This document shows positions 12,472 to 24,000 of a stretch of 24,000 nucleotides of DNA, one piece after another (position 1 is the stretch's first letter; each line of letters begins with the position of its first letter). The notes under the pieces are model-generated. The model was given only the letters and a program-made list of their open reading frames with translations, did no database searches and was not told the origin of the DNA. Location of the stretch: positions 5,434,228 to 5,458,227 of the forward strand of contig NZ_CP064923.1 of NCBI RefSeq assembly GCF_018336915.1. Reading direction: 5' to 3'. This DNA comes from Acaryochloris marina S15. GTDB lineage: Bacteria > Cyanobacteriota > Cyanobacteriia > Thermosynechococcales > Thermosynechococcaceae. A program made the position numbers and the translations under genes.

Positions 12472-14601
12472 ATGCAAACCGTAGCCAACTACCTACGGTC
12501 ACTACCAACAGACTATAGAGTTATTTATAGTAAATATTTTCTAGCATTCATTACCTTAGGGTTTATTGCCTACGATTTAACTGAAATTGGCCCCAAGATC
12601 GGATCCTTATCTCGCACTGTTTTACCCGTTTTACCGATCTGTTCTTCACTGCTGATATTAGGGGCATTAAGGATTTTTCTACCCCAACGTCCACCCAAAT
12701 GGATTCAAGGGCTATTCGTTTTTTTATTGTTTGTTGTGCAAGCCCGATATCTCTTGTGGCGGGCAACCCATACTCTAATTTTGAGTGGGCCAGATGGTGT
12801 ATTTTGCATCGGCCTCTTTGCTTATGAACTGCTCAGCATTCTGAATAGCTGGACCAATAACTATTTAATCTTACGGTCTCCCAATCGCAGTCTCGAAGCC
12901 GATCAATATAGTCAGTGGGTGCAAAAGACCTATAAGCCCAGCGTCGATATTTTGATCCCCACTTATAATGAATCCCACAAAATGTTGGAACGGACGCTGA
13001 TTGGTTGTAAATCCCTGAAATACCCGAAACAACAAAAACACATTTGGTTACTGGATGATGGACAACGACCCGATGTTAAAGCGCTGGCCCAAAAATGGGG
13101 ATGCAATTACCTCACTCGGCCCATTAATGACCATGCTAAGGCAGGAAACCTCAATCATGCTTTAAAGCATGTCAGTAGCGAAATTTTGGTGGTTTTTGAT
13201 GCTGACTTTGTCCCCCTCAATCACTTTTTGGAACGAACCATTGGATTTTTCAAAGCAGACGATAATTTGTCCATGGTCGTCACTCCTCAAAAGTTCTACA
13301 ATCCCGACCCTCCTCAAAAAAACCTAGGCGGGCGGTTTATTACGGATGAGCAAACTGATTTTTACCAAGTGATTCAGCCCGCCCGAGATTCTGTCAATGC
13401 TGTGGTTTGTTCGGGTAGTTCTGTGCTGTATCGACGCCAGCATTTAGATGCCATTGGTGGCATTCCTCTAGATACCATTGTTGAGGACTATGCCACGGGC
13501 ATCTTAATGCAAGCTCGGGGTTATAAGACCGTCTATTTAAATGAACTGCTGAGTGTCGGCTGTGCCGCCAACAATATTAATGAATATCTAAAACAACGGA
13601 TGCGTTGGGCAGAAGGCACCTTGAGGATGGTGATTAGCAAACGTAATCCTCTGTGGTTGCCTGGCCTCAACTTTATACAGCGGTTTACCTATGCTGCGGG
13701 CACCCTGTACTGGCTGGAAGAGATGCTGAAAACCTTGAGCTTTTTGGCTCCTCTTTTCTACTTGCTGTTTGGATTCAAAAGCATTGACATCACGTTAGGG
13801 GAAGCCAGCACCTATACCTTCTATAATTATTCTCTTTCTATGATTGTGATGAGCTGGATGCGAGGCAGCGTCCTGTTATTGATTATCTATAATCTCTTGC
13901 AAGGGTTTCATATTTTCAAAGTTGTACTGAAAATATTTTTATATTCTCAAATCTCTGATTCCTTCCAGGTCACGAATAAACAGTTAGATAGCTTTGGTAT
14001 AAAGTTCAATCTTCACAGTTTGGCGCATATTTTCATACTTTTAGGACTCACTCTATTCGCGATCATGTATGGCTTATTCCATCCCACAGGTGACGATCTA
14101 TATATCATCAATCTCATTTGGGCCCAAGTGAATCTGCTCTTTTTAGCAGCAGCCCTGATTGCGGGAGTGAGTGCCGATCATGATCGGGGACACCCTCGGG
14201 TCTTTTCGGATGAGGTCTGCCAGGTAACGACCCAAACAGGACAAAGCGCCATGGGTCAATTTATAGATATTTCGGAAGCAGGCTGTCGCTTTCGCACCCA
14301 TAACCCTACCGCACTACAACTGAATGAGACCGTTGAATTAGCCGTACCCAGGACCAGCTTACGAATGATGGCTGAGATCCGCAATCAGCAGAAAAACGGC
14401 ACGGTGTATGGCTGCATGTTTAAGGATGTAGACGCGGTCACCCTCTGGAAAATCGTTAACTTTACCTATTGCAACCCCCAAAACTGGAAACTGCCTCGAA
14501 TTCCTACAGAGTGGGATACGATTCGTGCGATCGCATCTGGCTTATACGGCCTCTACCCTTTTCGCAACCTGAAAGTATCCTGTAAGATCAACCCACGCTA
14601 G
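12472..14601 (+). CDS. bcsA: Cellulose synthase catalytic subunit-like family 2 glycosyltransferase with C-terminal PilZ (c-di-GMP-binding) domain
   Basis: Processive GT2 motifs are present: DILIPTYNES, LLDDGQ, HAKAGNLNHAL, VVFDADFVP, IVEDYATG (TED) and QRMRW (13594-13608). There are multiple TM helices on both sides of the GT domain. PilZ motifs are RGHPR (RxxxR, 14185-14199) and DISEAG (DxSxxG, 14266-14283). GGAG lies 7 nt upstream of the ATG. Confidence 0.88.
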   Translation: MQTVANYLRSLPTDYRVIYSKYFLAFITLGFIAYDLTEIGPKIGSLSRTVLPVLPICSSLLILGALRIFLPQRPPKWIQGLFVFLLFVVQARYLLWRATHTLILSGPDGVFCIGLFAYELLSILNSWTNNYLILRSPNRSLEADQYSQWVQKTYKPSVDILIPTYNESHKMLERTLIGCKSLKYPKQQKHIWLLDDGQRPDVKALAQKWGCNYLTRPINDHAKAGNLNHALKHVSSEILVVFDADFVPLNHFLERTIGFFKADDNLSMVVTPQKFYNPDPPQKNLGGRFITDEQTDFYQVIQPARDSVNAVVCSGSSVLYRRQHLDAIGGIPLDTIVEDYATGILMQARGYKTVYLNELLSVGCAANNINEYLKQRMRWAEGTLRMVISKRNPLWLPGLNFIQRFTYAAGTLYWLEEMLKTLSFLAPLFYLLFGFKSIDITLGEASTYTFYNYSLSMIVMSWMRGSVLLLIIYNLLQGFHIFKVVLKIFLYSQISDSFQVTNKQLDSFGIKFNLHSLAHIFILLGLTLFAIMYGLFHPTGDDLYIINLIWAQVNLLFLAAALIAGVSADHDRGHPRVFSDEVCQVTTQTGQSAMGQFIDISEAGCRFRTHNPTALQLNETVELAVPRTSLRMMAEIRNQQKNGTVYGCMFKDVDAVTLWKIVNFTYCNPQNWKLPRIPTEWDTIRAIASGLYGLYPFRNLKVSCKINPR

Positions 14602-16903: not shown

Positions 16904-18313
16904 TCAGGGTAGCTGATTTATCTCTTCCAAGGGCAGGGATTTAGCTTCAATCTTTTTAGGAAGCTGCTGAGGGAGTGTCACCGTAAAGAGGGTACCTTGC
17001 TGCAACCGACTGCTGACACTCATTTGACCTTGGTGATTGTGGCAAATCCCTTGTGCGATCGCAAGCCCCAATCCCGTTCCCATCACTTTGCCAGAGGAAA
17101 CGGGTTGAGCCGCCGGTATTAACGACCGCTGTCGAGCCGGATCCGCCCGATAAAACCGATCAAAGACATGGGGGATGGCTTCCGCCGGAATCCCGAGTCC
17201 CTCATCTTCAACTATCGCCTTTAGATAAGGTATACCTTGTCGAAGAGACTGTTTGAGGGTCACCCTGACCCTACCCTCCGCAGGGGTGTATTGAATACCA
17301 TTACTCACCAGATTGGTAAACAACCGCACCAGCTGATCGTAGTCTCCGATCACAGAAAAGGACTCTTCACCGGGTATCGTTTCTGCCCCCGTCTCTTCTA
17401 AATTTAGGTGTAGATGCACCCCCTTACTCGTCGCTAAAGCCCGTTGGTCTTCAACCACTTCCATCAAGACAGCATCCAACGGACAAGGCTGGTAGTCAAT
17501 CTGGAGCATGCCACTGTCTTGGCGGGCTAAAAACAGCAGGTCATCCACCAAGCGTCCAAGGCGCTGAGTCAGCCGCTCAATCACTTCTAACTGTTGCCGT
17601 TGCTCAGGCATCTCCAGTTCAGGATCTGCTAAAGCGACTTGCACATTGGTTTGGATAAGGGCAATCGGATTCCGCAACTCATGGGAGGCATCCGCCGTAA
17701 ACTGCTTCAGATGTTGGTAAGAGTCTTGAATCGGTTCAATGGCTAACCCCGAGAGAAACCAACCCGTCATTGCCACTAACCCCACTAACAAACTCGTCCC
17801 CAAGCTCAGGTCAATAAACAGTTGGCGAGCGGGTTTCGTCACCTCAAACCAAGGATGGCTCACTCTTAGATAGCCCAGCACATTGCCATTCAACATGACC
17901 CGCTGGGTGAGCTGCCGCAACAAGTAATCGTCTGCAATTTCAACGGTTTCACCACGGTAGCCCAACCGAATGGGGACCTCCAAGGTTTCAGATAGAGTTG
18001 ACCAAAGCAAATCACCGTCTGAATTAAACCATTCCAGATCAATCCGGTCATCATCCACCGCATCCGGCGGATCACCAAAGCTTGCTTCTAAATTAACGAT
18101 AAACGGAGAGTCTAGAGGAGAGAAATCTGCATTACTCGCCTCGACGACTAACGAGCGCTGTACCACCTCCACCACATGGCTCAAGGTATCATCCACCCGC
18201 TCAATCAGCGTGCCCCGCACATACAGGTAAAAACCACTGGCAAATACCAGCAGTAAAATTGCAGTGACCCCTGTATACCAGAGTGCTAATCGCCGTCGAG
18301 TTTTTTGGAACAT
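16904..18313 (-). CDS. Two-component sensor histidine kinase (two TM helices, periplasmic loop, HisKA + HATPase_c)
   Basis: H-box FTADASHELRNP, N-box LVSNGIQYT, G1 EDEGLGIP and G2 GTGLGLAIA. TM1 is ALWYTGVTAILLLVFASGFYL and TM2 is LSLGTSLLVGLVAMTGWFLSGL. There is no cognate DNA-binding response regulator next to it. Confidence 0.9.
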   Translation of the reverse strand: MFQKTRRRLALWYTGVTAILLLVFASGFYLYVRGTLIERVDDTLSHVVEVVQRSLVVEASNADFSPLDSPFIVNLEASFGDPPDAVDDDRIDLEWFNSDGDLLWSTLSETLEVPIRLGYRGETVEIADDYLLRQLTQRVMLNGNVLGYLRVSHPWFEVTKPARQLFIDLSLGTSLLVGLVAMTGWFLSGLAIEPIQDSYQHLKQFTADASHELRNPIALIQTNVQVALADPELEMPEQRQQLEVIERLTQRLGRLVDDLLFLARQDSGMLQIDYQPCPLDAVLMEVVEDQRALATSKGVHLHLNLEETGAETIPGEESFSVIGDYDQLVRLFTNLVSNGIQYTPAEGRVRVTLKQSLRQGIPYLKAIVEDEGLGIPAEAIPHVFDRFYRADPARQRSLIPAAQPVSSGKVMGTGLGLAIAQGICHNHQGQMSVSSRLQQGTLFTVTLPQQLPKKIEAKSLPLEEINQLP

Positions 18314-19830: not shown

Positions 19831-20524
19831 AGTGCCAAAAATTAATTGATGAAGGACAGAGAGATACTACCTTCAGGGTAACGAATCCATAGGAACGCAA
19901 GGTTACCCTGGCATACATAGAACGATATATCTAGTCTCTACGAGATTGAAAGATAAAGAACGCAATCATATAGCCATTTTCTTATTCCACCTCCAAAAGC
20001 CTAATTTACAGCGACAACCCACAACTAACTATATAGATAAAAACACCGAGAATAACTTTAAGAATTAGTTGAAGCAGCAGGCCATATATTAAATAATTTC
20101 TTTCACTTTCATAGATAAAGCAAAGAGTTTTATCGGAAAACACTGACTCCTCTCAGCATTAATTGATTTTCAGAGCATAAATATCAGAGTTTTTACTGAG
20201 GTGGCCATATTTCTGAAGTAGCTACGCTAGTTATAGAATTCTCCCCAAAGAAAATATTCCGTATTTTCTCGCAATAGACAAAGCTCAAAATTCTAGCAAA
20301 CAATCAACAAAGCAGCTATTAATCAACAAACTAAATTCACATCTAAAGTGCTTCCATCAATGGAGGTTATTTTTACAATCAATCCATTCATACAATCAGA
20401 CTAAAAATACAAGCACAAACCAAAAAGCTACAGATAAAATCACATAAAGGCTCATTGTTTCACTTCTAATTAAGTTATACATTAGAAGAATTTTAATGAC
20501 GTCAATTCATACATAGCAGTGCCA

Positions 20525-20554
20525 GCATTGATATATAACCTGATATATCAATGC
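20525..20554. promoter_or_regulatory. 12-bp perfect inverted repeat in the AT-rich region upstream of the metalloprotease gene
   Basis: GCATTGATATAT (20525-20536) and ATATATCAATGC (20543-20554) are exact reverse complements with a 6-bp spacer. They lie about 200 bp upstream of ATG 20755. The function is unknown (operator or RNA hairpin). Confidence 0.3.
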
Positions 20555-20754
20555 AAGTACATTGCGGTGCCACTCATATTCATGAAAGCCATATCATCAA
20601 ACCCAAAAAATCAATAAAAAAGCTATTCCTTGATTAATTCATAAATTAATTAGCCAAGAAAACACCTAAAAATATCGCCTAACCAATAAATATCAGAAGT
20701 AAATCCACGAGATCTCTTCACTCATTTTTCAGACCTTAAATAACATCCAGTGCA

Positions 20755-23700
20755 ATGACCAACCCAGCCAATTCTCAAGAATCTCATGATGTTATAAGCT
20801 CTGATCTTGATCATGATAGAACTTCTGAAATAGAATTCTCGCTTAGCAATAATTCAACTCTCTTAAGCGACCAGAAAGAAGACGAACATCTGTTTAAAGA
20901 TGAGACAAAACCACCACAACCTTCCATTGAAGCATTAGAATCTTTATCAATTGAAGGGGCAAGCTCTCAGCAAAACGATTTCGTTGAACAATATCGTTTC
21001 GACGAGTATCTTAACAGCAAAACTTTTTCTCTTTCTCCAAATCTTACCTCTCTACTTAACCCTGCAGAGCAACAAGCAAGCTGTTTAAACTGTGGTCAAG
21101 TGGGATGCGCTTGTTCACCTAACCGGACCCAGCAACAAGACGACCCTCATTACCATCATGGCCATACGTCACACCATCATGGCCATACGTCACACCATGC
21201 TCATGGTTTAGAGGGAGACTTCCCTGTATGGAATACAGCTAACACTTCAGCTAATATCAACCCATCTTCTTCTCTAGCTGTTAGCAATACATTTCAACTC
21301 CACAGCAATCCCAATGCGCAACACACGATTTACTTAGACTTTGACGGACATACCACATCCGGAACATGGTGGAACAATGGGGGAACCATCCGATCTTCCG
21401 CCTATAATCGAGACGGTAATAGCGCGTCTTTCAGTACAAGTGAATTATTAGAAATTCAGTCGATTTGGCAGCAGGTCGCTGAGGATTTTGCCCCTTTTAA
21501 TGTCAACGTCACGACCCAAGACCCAGGCGCTGCAGCCTTAAGCAGAACAAGTAGCAGCGACAGTCAATGGGGCGTTCGTGTTTTATTCACTGATAACCGC
21601 AACGAGATAGATGGTACGGCAGTTGCTGCAGGCGCAGGAGGCATTGCCTATGTCGGTAGTTTTAATCGCAATGTTGATCAGGCCGTTTTTGTTTTTAATA
21701 AAGGGGCTAGAGCTGCTGCCGTCACTGCAAGTCATGAAGTTGGGCACAGTTTATATCTCAGGCACGATGGTATCAGTGGTCAGACCGCTTACCATCCTGG
21801 CCATGGCAGCGGTGCCACGAGTTGGGGCACTATCATGGGAGCCCCTTTTCAGGAAAACCTGACGCAATGGAGTAAAGGAGATTACTACAACGCAGATAAC
21901 ACTGAAGACGACCTTGCCATCATCACCACAAGAAATGGCTTTGATTATCGCTCCGACGATCATGGCAATAGCCAAGCCAATGCTTCAGCACTATCCCTAA
22001 ACAATGCCGGTCAAATGAGTTCCTTCGGCATTATTGAAAGGAATACAGATGTTGACTATTTTTCCTTCACAACAGGAGCAGGCGACGTTTCATTTACAAT
22101 TACTCCTACATCAAAAGCATTCGTTGGGAATGGTAGCGGTGGCTATGCCACTGAATACTTAGATGCTCAAGGCGCTAATCTCGATATCTGGGCGGGACTA
22201 TACAACTCTAATGGCACATTGTTAACATCTTCTAACCCGAGCAATCTTTTAACTGCAAGTTTAGACTTGTCCCTTACTGCAGGAACTTACTTTATCCGCA
22301 TTGATGGTGTGGGCAAAGATAATCCCTTAGTCAGTGGATCACAAGGCTATTCTGATTATGGCAGTTTGGGCCAGTATTCAATCCTTGGCAATGTTGAATC
22401 ACTCTCCGCGAGAATAATTGAAGCATCAGGGAATGCCTCATTACTCACTACGGTGGTTGGTTATCAACTTCAAGGGCAGGGAGCTGCTGCTCAGTTTCTT
22501 CGGTTGAACGGAAATGTGGTCAGCGAAAACACTTTCTCCGGCTGGTCTGCTATTGGTGTAGAGCGGTTAGGGCAAGGGTATCAGTTACTGTGGAAAAATG
22601 TTGATGGACGCTATTTAGACTGGCGGGTGGATGCAAATGGGACTTATCAGAGCTCTCAAAGTATCAGTGAAACAGAACTCACTAGTTTAGAACCGACTTT
22701 TCAGCAAGATCTCAATGGTGATCAAGAGATTGGATGGGCATCAACGGCGATAGAAACGGTTGGGACTGCCTCCTTAACAACAACGGCAGTTGGTTATCAA
22801 CTGCAAGGGCAGGGAGCTGCTGCTCAGTTTCTTTGGTTGAACGGAAATGTGGTCAGCGAAAACACTTTCTCTGGCTGGTCTGCTATTGGTGTAGAGCGGT
22901 TAGGGCAAGGGTATCAATTACTGTGGAAAAATGTTGATGGACGCTATTTAGACTGGCGGGTGGATGCAAATGGGACTTATCAGAGCTCTCAAAGTATCAG
23001 TGAAACAGAACTCACTAGTTTAGAACCGACTTTTCAGCAAGATCTCAATGGTGATCAAGAGATTGGATGGGCATCAACGGCGATAGAAACGGTTGGGACT
23101 GCCTCCTTAACAACAACGGCAGTTGGTTATCAACTGCAAGGGCAGGGAGCTGCTGCTCAGTTTCTTTGGTTGAACGGAAATGTGGTCAGCGAAAACACTT
23201 TCTCTAGCTGGTCTGCTATTGGTGTAGAGCGGTTAGGGCAAGGGTATCAGTTACTGTGGAAAAATGTTGATGGACGCTATTTAGACTGGCGGGTGGATGC
23301 AAATGGGACTTATCAGAGCTCTCAAAGTATCAGTGAAACAGAACTCACTAGTTTAGAACCGACTTTTCAGCAAGATCTCAATGGTGATCAAGAGATTGGA
23401 TGGGCATCAACGGCGATAGAAACGGTTGGGACTGCCTCCTTAACAACAACGGCAGTTGGTTATCAACTGCAAGGGCAGGGAGCTGCTGCTCAGTTTCTTT
23501 GGTTGAACGGAAATGTGGTCAGCGAAAACACTTTCTCCGGCTGGTCTGCTATTGGTGTAGAGCGGTTAGGGCAAGGGTATCAGTTACTGTGGAAAAATGT
23601 TGATGGACGCTATTTAGACTGGCGGGTGGATGCAAATGGGACTTATCAGAGCTCTCAAAGTATCAGTGAAACAGAACTCACTAGTTTAGAACCGACTTTT

Positions 23701-24000
23701 CAGCAAGATCTCAATGGTGATCAAGAGATTGGATGGGCATCAACGGCGATAGAAACGGTTGGGACTGCCTCCTTAACAACAACGGCAGTTGGTTATCAAC
23801 TGCAAGGGCAGGGAGCTGCTGCTCAGTTTCTTTGGTTGAACGGAAATGTGGTCAGCGAAAACACTTTCTCTGGCTGGTCTGCTATTGGTGTAGAGCGGTT
23901 AGGGCAAGGGTATCAGTTACTGTGGAAAAATGTTGATGGACGCTATTTAGACTGGCGGGTGGATGCAAATGGGACTTATCAGAGCTCTCAAAGTATCAGT
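20755..24000 (+). CDS. Large multidomain zinc metalloprotease (metzincin/reprolysin-like catalytic domain + PPC-like domain + 111-aa tandem repeats); 3' end lies outside the window
   Basis: It is not on the ORF track because it has no stop in the window. ATG 20755 is preceded by an in-frame TAA at 20737-20739. I translated frame 1 line by line to base 24000 (1082 codons) and found no stop. Zinc site HEVGHSLYLRHD (21733-21768) with a downstream Met-turn-like TIMG (21829-21840). TIYLDFDGHTTSGTWWN marks the start of the catalytic domain. DVDYFSFT...AGTYFIRIDGVG...YGSLGQYSILG is PPC-like (about 21955-22395). Confidence 0.8.
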   Translation, partial: MTNPANSQESHDVISSDLDHDRTSEIEFSLSNNSTLLSDQKEDEHLFKDETKPPQPSIEALESLSIEGASSQQNDFVEQYRFDEYLNSKTFSLSPNLTSLLNPAEQQASCLNCGQVGCACSPNRTQQQDDPHYHHGHTSHHHGHTSHHAHGLEGDFPVWNTANTSANINPSSSLAVSNTFQLHSNPNAQHTIYLDFDGHTTSGTWWNNGGTIRSSAYNRDGNSASFSTSELLEIQSIWQQVAEDFAPFNVNVTTQDPGAAALSRTSSSDSQWGVRVLFTDNRNEIDGTAVAAGAGGIAYVGSFNRNVDQAVFVFNKGARAAAVTASHEVGHSLYLRHDGISGQTAYHPGHGSGATSWGTIMGAPFQENLTQWSKGDYYNADNTEDDLAIITTRNGFDYRSDDHGNSQANASALSLNNAGQMSSFGIIERNTDVDYFSFTTGAGDVSFTITPTSKAFVGNGSGGYATEYLDAQGANLDIWAGLYNSNGTLLTSSNPSNLLTASLDLSLTAGTYFIRIDGVGKDNPLVSGSQGYSDYGSLGQYSILGNVESLSARIIEASGNASLLTTVVGYQLQGQGAAAQFLRLNGNVVSENTFSGWSAIGVERLGQGYQLLWKNVDGRYLDWRVDANGTYQSSQSISETELTSLEPTFQQDLNGDQEIGWASTAIETVGTASLTTTAVGYQLQGQGAAAQFLWLNGNVVSENTFSGWSAIGVERLGQGYQLLWKNVDGRYLDWRVDANGTYQSSQSISETELTSLEPTFQQDLNGDQEIGWASTAIETVGTASLTTTAVGYQLQGQGAAAQFLWLNGNVVSENTFSSWSAIGVERLGQGYQLLWKNVDGRYLDWRVDANGTYQSSQSISETELTSLEPTFQQDLNGDQEIGWASTAIETVGTASLTTTAVGYQLQGQGAAAQFLWLNGNVVSENTFSGWSAIGVERLGQGYQLLWKNVDGRYLDWRVDANGTYQSSQSISETELTSLEPTFQQDLNGDQEIGWASTAIETVGTASLTTTAVGYQLQGQGAAAQFLWLNGNVVSENTFSGWSAIGVERLGQGYQLLWKNVDGRYLDWRVDANGTYQSSQSIS
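21154..21195 (+). repeat. Perfect 21-bp tandem duplication encoding HHGHTSH x2 inside a His-rich tract
   Basis: CATCATGGCCATACGTCACAC occurs at 21154-21174 and again at 21175-21195. The surrounding peptide HYHHGHTSHHHGHTSHHAH (21148-21204) has 11 His in 19 residues. Confidence 0.9.
22417..24000 (+). repeat. In-frame tandem array of 333-bp (111-aa) units, at least 4.75 copies, continuing past the window end
   Basis: Units occupy 22417-22749, 22750-23082, 23083-23415, 23416-23748 and 23749-24000 (partial). Units 2-5 differ by only 1-3 substitutions each, for example TCTGGC / TCTAGC / TCCGGC at the same codon pair and CAATTA versus CAGTTA. Unit 1 diverges over its first ~50 nt and has CGG instead of TGG at 22501. 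Confidence 0.95.

Follow-up and report, generated by a model that had tools for sequence, protein, structure and literature searches.

A multidomain zinc metalloprotease with a length-variable W_rich_C repeat array in Acaryochloris marina S15, and how it might leave the cell

How does a cyanobacterium export a large protease of extracellular type that carries no N-terminal signal peptide, and where would such an enzyme act once it is outside? The question is raised by an open reading frame (ORF) that runs off the end of a 24,000-nucleotide stretch of Acaryochloris marina S15 DNA (assembly GCF_018336915.1, contig NZ_CP064923.1, positions 5,434,228 to 5,458,227 of the forward strand; this whole stretch is referred to as the window). 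The ORF is predicted to encode the A. marina S15 ortholog of AM1_2804, a multidomain, modular zinc endopeptidase of extracellular type, and the explanation of the locus that we consider the most probable, with reservations set out below, is that of a protease with a propeptide, type I export and targeting to the cell surface or matrix. There is little out of the ordinary in the protein as such: it belongs to a large cyanobacterial family, for which the first search brought up several thousand relatives, and each of its own modules comes from a known family.

Frame 1 of the forward strand is uninterrupted from the ATG at 20755 to the end of the window at 24000 (1082 codons, 0 stops), and an in-frame TAA (20737-20739) lies five codons (ITSSA) ahead of this ATG with no start codon in between, which makes a longer N-terminus impossible and disposes of the upstream start with a signal peptide that an earlier note on this DNA, made from the sequence alone and otherwise reading the frame in just this way, had allowed for. 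The identical ATG after an in-frame stop is seen in five of five loci of the A. marina type (the window and loci L001, L002, L010 and L011), although the public annotation of strain NIES-2412 begins at an internal GTG (codon 117) rather than at the ATG. The ORF is the longest in the window, the runner-up being 709 amino acids (aa), as the earlier note had said; its absence from the ORF track, on which that note had also remarked, is merely a window-edge artefact, because ORFs running past the sequence edge are not listed, and the gene is real and already annotated. Its closest protein matches are from A. marina and are annotated as “zinc-dependent metalloprotease family protein”, with 98% identity to the NIES-2412 protein and 84% to AM1_2804 of strain MBIC11017 (UniProt B0C9C3, assigned COG2931). 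At the DNA level, the window shares 98.4% identity with CP071717.1 and 97.3% with the NIES-2412 contig, and the gene order is the same. The four-part architecture proposed in the earlier note is right overall and is refined here in that the catalytic part starts at about aa 175-180, the likeness of the beta domain to PPC is one of fold alone, and the repeats, which that note left unnamed, belong to the Pfam family W_rich_C. The parts of the gene are as follows.

20755 to 24000, forward strand: protease ORF, complete at the 5' end and cut at the 3' end by the end of the window, 1082 codons
20755 to 21273, forward strand: signal-less, acidic and polar N-terminal region, aa 1-173, a putative propeptide
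21082 to 21114, forward strand: Cys cluster CLNCGQVGCAC (CxxCx4CxC), aa 110-120, with the sole 4 cysteines of the window protein
21148 to 21207, forward strand: His-rich tract HYHHGHTSHHHGHTSHHAHG, aa 132-151, derived in part from a 21-bp tandem repeat at 21152-21198
21274 to 21981, forward strand: metzincin catalytic domain, reprolysin-like, about aa 174-409, matched by Pfam Reprolysin_3
21733 to 21768, forward strand: zinc-binding motif HEVGHSLYLRHD, aa 327-338, with Tyr in place of the canonical metzincin Gly
21829 to 21840, forward strand: candidate Met-turn TIMG, aa 359-362, with a nearly invariant Met
21994 to 22401, forward strand: PPC-like beta-sandwich, about aa 414-549, with a fold match to PPC/collagen-binding domains
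22423 to 24000, forward strand: array of 111-aa W_rich_C repeats, with units at 22423-22755, 22756-23088, 23089-23421 and 23422-23754 and a partial unit at 23755-24000

The catalytic domain is best described as a predicted metzincin of the reprolysin-like Pfam families (PF13582/PF13688, M12B-type) that is no close relative of M12B proper. Reprolysin_3 scores 27.7 bits in the full protein and 29.4 bits in the core, above its cut-off of 22.4, and Reprolysin_5 scores 25.1 bits, under its cut-off of 27; among 51 aligned relatives the two families match 47 and 43 sequences, respectively, and neither Peptidase_M10 nor Peptidase_M10_C has a match in the window protein at E <= 1. Searching PDB with the single sequence of the domain returned weak adamalysin matches only, whereas the family profile placed snake-venom metalloproteinases, ADAM33 and ADAMTS5 best (E 1.3e-4 to 5e-3), with alkaline protease at E 1.7e-3 through a match confined to the zinc helix; the profile alignments take in no more than the strand and helix that surround the zinc site (~60-110 residues). 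H327, E328, H331, H337 and D338 are all present in the window protein and invariant across the 51-sequence alignment, and Met361 of the candidate Met-turn (M197 in core numbering) is nearly invariant; the catalytic domain picked out in the earlier note is borne out, and its TIMG stands as a candidate Met-turn. The ratio of non-synonymous to synonymous substitution rates (dN/dS) of the domain is 0.04-0.07, i.e., strong purifying selection on the most constrained part of the gene. As the catalytic domain holds no cysteines (all 4 lie at aa 110-120), it has no disulfides.

The part that follows is PPC-like by fold, beyond what Pfam detects at the level of sequence, as judged from a structure model of aa 165-560 built from 51 homologs (predicted local distance difference test, pLDDT, 86; predicted template modelling score, pTM, 0.90). 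Foldseek against PDB with the all-beta C-terminal part of the model matched the collagen-binding domains (CBD) of ColG/ColH, 5sv5 (the PPC domain of the B. anthracis collagenase) and the C-domain of the subtilisin Tk-SP, the targets 5sv5, 1nqd, 1nqj, 3jqw and 3afg being found at E 7e-6 to 2e-5 with a template modelling (TM) score on the target of 0.7-0.78 for single-domain targets; the C-domain of the Clostridium perfringens enterotoxin was also among the fold matches. PPC itself (PF04151) has no match in the window protein at E <= 1 and matches 1 of 51 family members. The earlier label of a PPC-like beta-sandwich is therefore right at the level of the fold, given these matches on a confident model, and fails as a profile match.

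Ahead of the catalytic domain, the N-terminus proves to be as acidic, polar and signal-less as the earlier note had described it: aa 1-190 contain 25 D+E, 7 K+R, 16 H and 71 S/T/N/Q residues, the first 30 residues hold 7 acidic and 1 basic, and the Kyte-Doolittle hydropathy of 12-residue stretches peaks at 0.43 within aa 1-60, compared with 1.9-3.0 for relatives bearing a Sec signal, so that no hydrophobic segment and no Sec- or Tat-like N-terminus was found by hydropathy. Codons 1-116 are open in every lineage, and all indels preserve the frame, with a dN/dS of 0.29-0.41 for aa 1-116 (0.31 against MBIC11017; 0.41 against L011), which makes this part coding but weakly constrained in comparison with the catalytic domain. 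The CLNCGQVGCAC cluster is kept in MBIC11017 and L011, and 61/120 family members have a CxCxxC-type cluster ahead of the catalytic core, at a distance of ~30 residues in those whose positions were compared; the RTX-tailed family members listed have zero cysteines. The His-rich tract is retained at the same position in the orthologs, with differing sequence and length. In the window, a perfect 21-bp tandem repeat (2.2 copies, 21152-21198) encodes HGHTSHH twice within this tract. The tract also brought up ZepA, a cyanobacterial zinc-handling exoprotein, which was rejected as a model, being a non-protease with a Sec signal, a PEP-CTERM anchor and an unrelated fold.

The near-identical 111-aa repeats of the earlier note are just that: Tandem Repeats Finder (TRF) gives a period of 333 bp with 4.6 copies at 99% identity (~4.7 copies when the divergent first unit is included), units 2-5 differing by 0-2 nt and unit 1 by 17 nt, and Pfam W_rich_C (PF07483) matches at E 9.9e-121 and 395.6 bits in 5 stretches that cover positions 3-105 of the 105-position profile. 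Each unit ends in a Ca-binding-like motif, FxQDLNGDGxIG, given as DLNGDQEIG for the array in the window. Counted by an exhaustive search of representative sequences, W_rich_C is present in 1,496 representative clusters (E <= 0.001), in arrays of 3-13 units and in proteins of up to 3,600 aa, and the domains found beside it by Pfam in 51 other proteins are RTX (15), Peptidase_M10_C (10), Peptidase_M10 (5), Peptidase_M8 (3), Peptidase_S8 (2) and GH5 cellulase (1). The sole paper found that names W_rich_C describes a Synechococcus protein of the layout (W_rich_C)2-(PPC)2-subtilisin (PMC2605481). A model of two units is moderately confident (pLDDT 62, with repeat cores at 75-87), and Foldseek gave it no significant or convincing structural neighbour. 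Homology of the repeats to FG-GAP/VCBS, raised by an iterated hidden Markov model (HMM) cross-match via DxNGDG, was dismissed as a shared Ca-binding motif only, and LppX_LprAFG, Acetyltransf_CG, DUF6161, BetaGal_ABD2 and Por_Secre_tail, falling inside the repeats or the PPC domain, were discarded as below the cut-off or without a significant stretch.

The number of units per array is 1 in L012, 2 in L011, 3 in MBIC11017, 4 in CP071717, 5 in BDM82532, 6 in NIES-2412 and at least 4.7 in the window. The array appears to evolve in concert by unequal recombination, since repeat identity is 0.93-0.97 among the units of one strain and falls to 0.80-0.83 when distant strains are compared, against a core identity of 0.87. 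BDM82532.1 (P0270) and AM1_2804 (P0002) are near-identical outside the array, with 5 and 3 units, respectively, and the two extra units of the former, in which D/S and V/M variants alternate, seem to have arisen by duplication of a two-unit block; the pair indicates a copy-number change that was, by all appearances, very recent. All seven Logan short-read contigs of the locus (L003-L009) break at the first W_rich_C unit and have a called product of 576-577 aa, and copy numbers taken from draft assemblies are unreliable because short-read assemblies stop there. Beside the array, synonymous divergence is mosaic: third-position identity at identical residues is 0.82-0.94 in the PPC-like region (window 22075-22434, aa 441-560) and ~0.5-0.7 in the catalytic region, a contrast that is seen against MBIC11017 (L010) and L011 and is absent against the distant L012, and that may stem from recombination between strains.

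What, then, could take such a protein out of the cell? The window stops before the C-terminus, and the tail was read from full-length orthologs, which in A. marina end in “LLLGGPS.QMLVG.ARND” followed by ~100 residues finishing “FLYDQLSGYLRYDADG...IATFSSKPELFHQDIQLVL”, with the conserved pattern ‘FLYD..G.L.YD.DG...IA.LSSKP.L...D.QLVL’ after a degenerate RTX remnant. A syntenic 57%-identity ortholog, P0004, has true RTX repeats (HemolysinCabind PF00353, 2.2e-12), and its RTX tail is homologous to the A. marina tail, the two being 39% identical (E 3e-24). Matches to the A. marina tail are also seen at the ends of ~30 proteins of this protease family that bear RTX repeats; these tails read “QRFIY..TG.L.FD.DG...KIATFSN...LS..DFLVV”, with end variants of the form ...IATFSN...LS..DF[LVM][VI][VF]. 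At least three RTX-like motifs are present near the C-terminus in ~45 of the best 120 family matches, and Pfam HemolysinCabind in 10/51 of the family members scanned. In Shewanella, Vibrio, Phycisphaerales and Acidimicrobiia, proteins built on this core begin with a Sec signal peptide, from which it follows that the family is extracellular with an export route dependent on the lineage; the cyanobacterial members have no N-terminal signal peptide. RTX proteases are metzincins without a signal peptide, made as zymogens, activated by N-terminal processing outside the cell after type I export and exported by means of an uncleaved signal of ~60 C-terminal residues, and A. marina MBIC11017 encodes up to 28 RTX proteins (PMC3034196). 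Taken together, this favours export through the C-terminus by a type I system as the likelier route, and the guess to that effect in the earlier note gains indirect support from the kinship of the tail with RTX tails and from the restriction of Sec signals to non-cyanobacterial relatives.

A number of observations weigh against it, and they have to be set beside the above. This strain's own C-terminal tail lies beyond the window, and only ortholog tails were seen; what is left of the RTX block in the full-length A. marina orthologs is a single degenerate nonapeptide-like stretch, and Pfam RTX (PF00353) has no match at E <= 10, so the nonapeptide check suggested in the earlier note came back negative. 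In the two closest genomes (L001 ~13646-13740; L002, 3' end), a TGA removes the last 14 residues, giving the ending ‘IATLS*RPGLSPQDIQLVL*’, and in CP071717 the remnant contains a further stop, so that the acidic-plus-hydrophobic extreme C-terminus appears to be in the course of being lost in this clade. The extreme C-terminal end is needed for the export of Erwinia PrtG, and, if it is needed here as well, export may be impaired in the truncated clade. The other check suggested, for adjacent ABC/HlyD/TolC genes, was likewise negative: no gene for an ATP-binding cassette (ABC) transporter, membrane-fusion protein (MFP) or TolC lies within 10 kb of the protease in L001, L002, L010, L012 or the window, which carries little weight since the genuine RTX-tailed members are also without nearby transporter genes, and the feature has no discriminating power in cyanobacteria. 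Most W_rich_C proteins display neither a signal peptide nor a plain RTX tail: among 149 other best W_rich_C proteins retrieved with one repeat, ~8 have an evident RTX-like C-terminus, and 5 of the 118 that start with Met have a hydrophobic N-terminus; the simple count of RTX motifs is an underestimate, as Pfam finds RTX repeats in 15/51 W_rich_C proteins. On the catalytic side, position 8 of the zinc motif is Tyr334, where the metzincin canon has Gly. Finally, functional studies of AM1_2804, W_rich_C or Acaryochloris secreted proteases were sought in the literature and none were found, that is, no experiment on the activity, secretion or ligand of an AM1_2804-type protease.

Under the explanation we favour, an inactive precursor would be synthesised in the cytoplasm, with the N-terminal region of ~170 residues, including the Cys cluster and the His-rich tract, serving as the propeptide. 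Export would proceed C-terminus first through a type I system (ABC/membrane-fusion protein/TolC) encoded elsewhere in the genome, which would recognise the conserved C-terminal tail, i.e., the degenerate RTX remnant plus the end motif. Outside the cell the domains would fold and the propeptide would be removed, leaving the protease active, as in serralysin-type RTX proteases, and the PPC domain together with the W_rich_C array would direct the enzyme to a ligand on the cell surface or in the matrix, perhaps a polysaccharide, or tether it there, with the length of the array shifting quickly through unequal recombination of its near-identical units.

The strongest competitor, unlikely in our estimate, is export or release by a route other than type I (an unrecognised W_rich_C pathway, outer-membrane vesicles or lysis), with the tail a relic of an RTX ancestor. 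The failure of the A. marina tails with Pfam RTX, the decaying remnant with its 14 lost residues in the two closest strains and the small shares of RTX-like ends (~8 of 149) and hydrophobic N-termini (5/118) among W_rich_C proteins would all fit it, as would the W_rich_C-array members of the Cyanobium/Synechococcus type, which have neither a signal peptide nor an RTX tail; yet the tail is clearly conserved across the Acaryochloris lineages and homologous to genuine RTX tails, RTX repeats do accompany W_rich_C in those 15 of the 51 proteins scanned, and no alternative export signal was identified. Should the enzyme instead be a catalytically impaired pseudo-protease, serving above all as an adhesin on the surface or as a protein of the matrix, with its head as a binding module, then the Tyr at the Gly position, found in the Acaryochloris clade and a few other family members, would make sense, and a long array with a PPC domain does resemble adhesin/binding architectures. 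The family consensus of the zinc motif is HEVGHTLGLTHD, with Gly, but N, S, D or Y at this position is tolerated in other members (Y/N/S/D in <20/120 overall), the zinc ligands, catalytic Glu, Asp and Met are all retained, and the catalytic domain, with its low dN/dS, is under tighter constraint than any other part of the gene, all of which renders this reading improbable.

Two further alternatives concern the origin of the gene and of its repeats, and for these the setting of the locus matters. Between the msrA-like gene and the protease lies the ~920-bp AT-rich gap of the earlier note:

19831 to 20754, no strand assigned: AT-rich intergenic gap from the msrA-like gene to the protease, 924 bp, GC 0.33

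The gap presumably holds the promoter and 5' untranslated region; each forward frame has 18-24 stop codons in it, an Rfam scan gave no match near threshold, and promoter-like or terminator-like matches are no more numerous there than in shuffled sequence. It is 96% identical in close strains and ~72% identical to MBIC11017. The MBIC11017 gap carries an insertion sequence (IS) element (DDE_Tnp_1 transposase, L010 7791-9209), at a place corresponding to window ~19980-20025, that is absent from the window and two close strains. The gene order GT2-PilZ, response regulator, CYTH, Band_7, histidine kinase, UPF0093, MsrA, gap, protease, SMC is common to the window, NIES-2412, CP071717 and MBIC11017, and the adjacency of protease and SMC extends to the 57%-identity ortholog, which is metagenomic. 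The first gene in this order (window 12472-14601, forward strand) encodes a GT2/cellulose-synthase-like glycosyltransferase with a C-terminal PilZ domain that is probably under the control of cyclic di-GMP (c-di-GMP); in CP071717 this gene (L002 15230-17360) is split into ORFs of 438 and 285 aa. Downstream of SMC in L001, L002 and L010 lie a second GT2 gene and a gene for a CbiA/BcsQ-like ATPase, and the neighbourhood hints at polysaccharide synthesis.

That the protease gene was acquired horizontally in recent times, a possibility floated in the earlier note, strikes us as very improbable. It was brought up by the HIP1 sites (GCGATCGC), the enrichment of which is a usual cyanobacterial signature: the window has 8 of them, as previously counted, against 0.18 expected from shuffling (>40-fold), the last one at 17055-17062, and none in the remaining 6.9 kb, nor are there any in the protease gene of any ortholog. 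The HIP1-free run, which includes the repeat array and the AT-rich spacer, departs little from expectation (Poisson P(0 in 6938 bp) = 0.039). GC at third codon positions (GC3) is consistently low in the protease gene (0.32-0.40 versus 0.41-0.59 in neighbouring genes), so its composition seems slightly distinct, while the overall GC of 0.45-0.47 matches the window and is genome-typical. An AT-rich gap upstream and the presence of the protease core in distant phyla could be added in favour of a transfer, but the closest relatives are all cyanobacterial, MsrA, gap, protease and SMC follow one another in four Acaryochloris loci, and it is the conservation of gene order down to the 57%-identity ortholog that leaves a recent acquisition unsupported, though an ancient one may have taken place. 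We likewise give very little credence to the array, or its copy number, being an assembly artefact. Seven short-read assemblies breaking at the first repeat, and units 2-5 being so nearly the same, are what would raise such a suspicion, whereas arrays of 3, 4 and 5 units are present in chromosome records of megabase scale (6.5, 5.7 and 6.4 Mb), the frame stays open through all units, and the units bear strain-specific substitutions.

One could go further than the explanation favoured above and imagine a surface-tethered protease, a speculative picture that we rate as quite unlikely in its entirety, in which, after type I export with the C-terminus leading, the Cys4/His-rich N-terminal segment, folded in the cytoplasm and binding metal, would serve as a cysteine-switch latency device or as a LapA-type outer-membrane retention plug, and the Ca-binding W_rich_C array as a stalk or ligand-binding arm of rapidly changing length. 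This arm may target the cell's own cellulose-like polysaccharide, potentially made by the GT2-PilZ neighbours; its reach would depend on the strain, and release would be tuned, in one clade, by the disappearance of the motif at the extreme C-terminus. If true, this would amount to a new architecture class of cyanobacterial type I substrates and the first function for W_rich_C.

Whatever the exact route, cyanobacterial exoproteins and their export are poorly characterised, and this family offers one protease-PPC core with interchangeable C-terminal modules (W_rich_C, RTX, Calx-beta, VCBS, PKD), and with Sec signals in other phyla and none in cyanobacteria, which makes it a natural series for swaps of export signals and targeting modules. 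Near-isogenic Acaryochloris strains with different repeat numbers and different states of the C-terminal secretion motif are a useful resource in this regard. What is noteworthy about the locus is thus the lineage-dependence of the export signals, the fast-changing array, the Cys/His-rich pro-region, the Gly-to-Tyr change and the C-terminal motif decaying in one clade.

Among known systems, the serralysin-type RTX proteases (AprA, PrtA/B/C/G, PrtSM; MEROPS M10B) are metzincins without a signal peptide and with an N-terminal pro-segment, as the Acaryochloris protease appears to be, and the tails of the A. marina orthologs look to be derived from RTX tails. Serralysin-type proteases consist of a catalytic head, C-terminal Ca-binding repeats and an uncleaved type I signal ending in acidic plus hydrophobic residues (PMC3034196). 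The Acaryochloris head, in contrast, is reprolysin-like, with no Peptidase_M10/M10_C, an HD context of the third His and no Ser-x-Met-x-Tyr signature; its pro-region is ~170 aa long versus 16-18 in serralysins; the protein carries, as insertions, a PPC domain and a long W_rich_C array; its RTX block has decayed in A. marina; and no transporter or inhibitor genes are linked to the locus. The reprolysin/adamalysin/ADAM group (MEROPS M12B) provides the best sequence and profile matches of the catalytic domain and shares with it HExxHxxxxxHD, a conserved Met downstream and a Cys-containing region N-terminal to the catalytic domain, although the similarity spans only ~60-110 residues round the active site (best E 1.3e-4) and the motif Gly is replaced by Tyr. 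M12B proper (adamalysins, ADAMs) has a disulfide-bonded catalytic domain and a cysteine switch in the prodomain, whereas the Acaryochloris protease is bacterial and signal-less and has neither disintegrin or Cys-rich domains nor catalytic cysteines.

The C-terminal modules have their own counterparts. With the ColG/ColH CBD, 5sv5 and the Tk-SP C-domain, the beta domain shares the beta-sandwich fold and a placement directly after the protease domain, its sequence being too divergent for PF04151. Other cyanobacterial W_rich_C proteins also bear tandem arrays on extracellular-type hydrolases, often together with RTX, but here the array sits on a reprolysin-like head and its units are 99% identical. 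Lastly, RTX adhesins of the LapA, MpIBP and SiiE type are large and signal-less, with tandem arrays of Ca-binding extender domains and a C-terminal RTX block plus type I signal, and their repeat number varies between strains, as it does in the Acaryochloris array. The domain types are different, though, and no N-terminal retention module or LapG site was identified in the Acaryochloris protein, the array of which is C-terminal to a functional head, whereas the adhesin arrays are N-terminal to ligand-binding domains.

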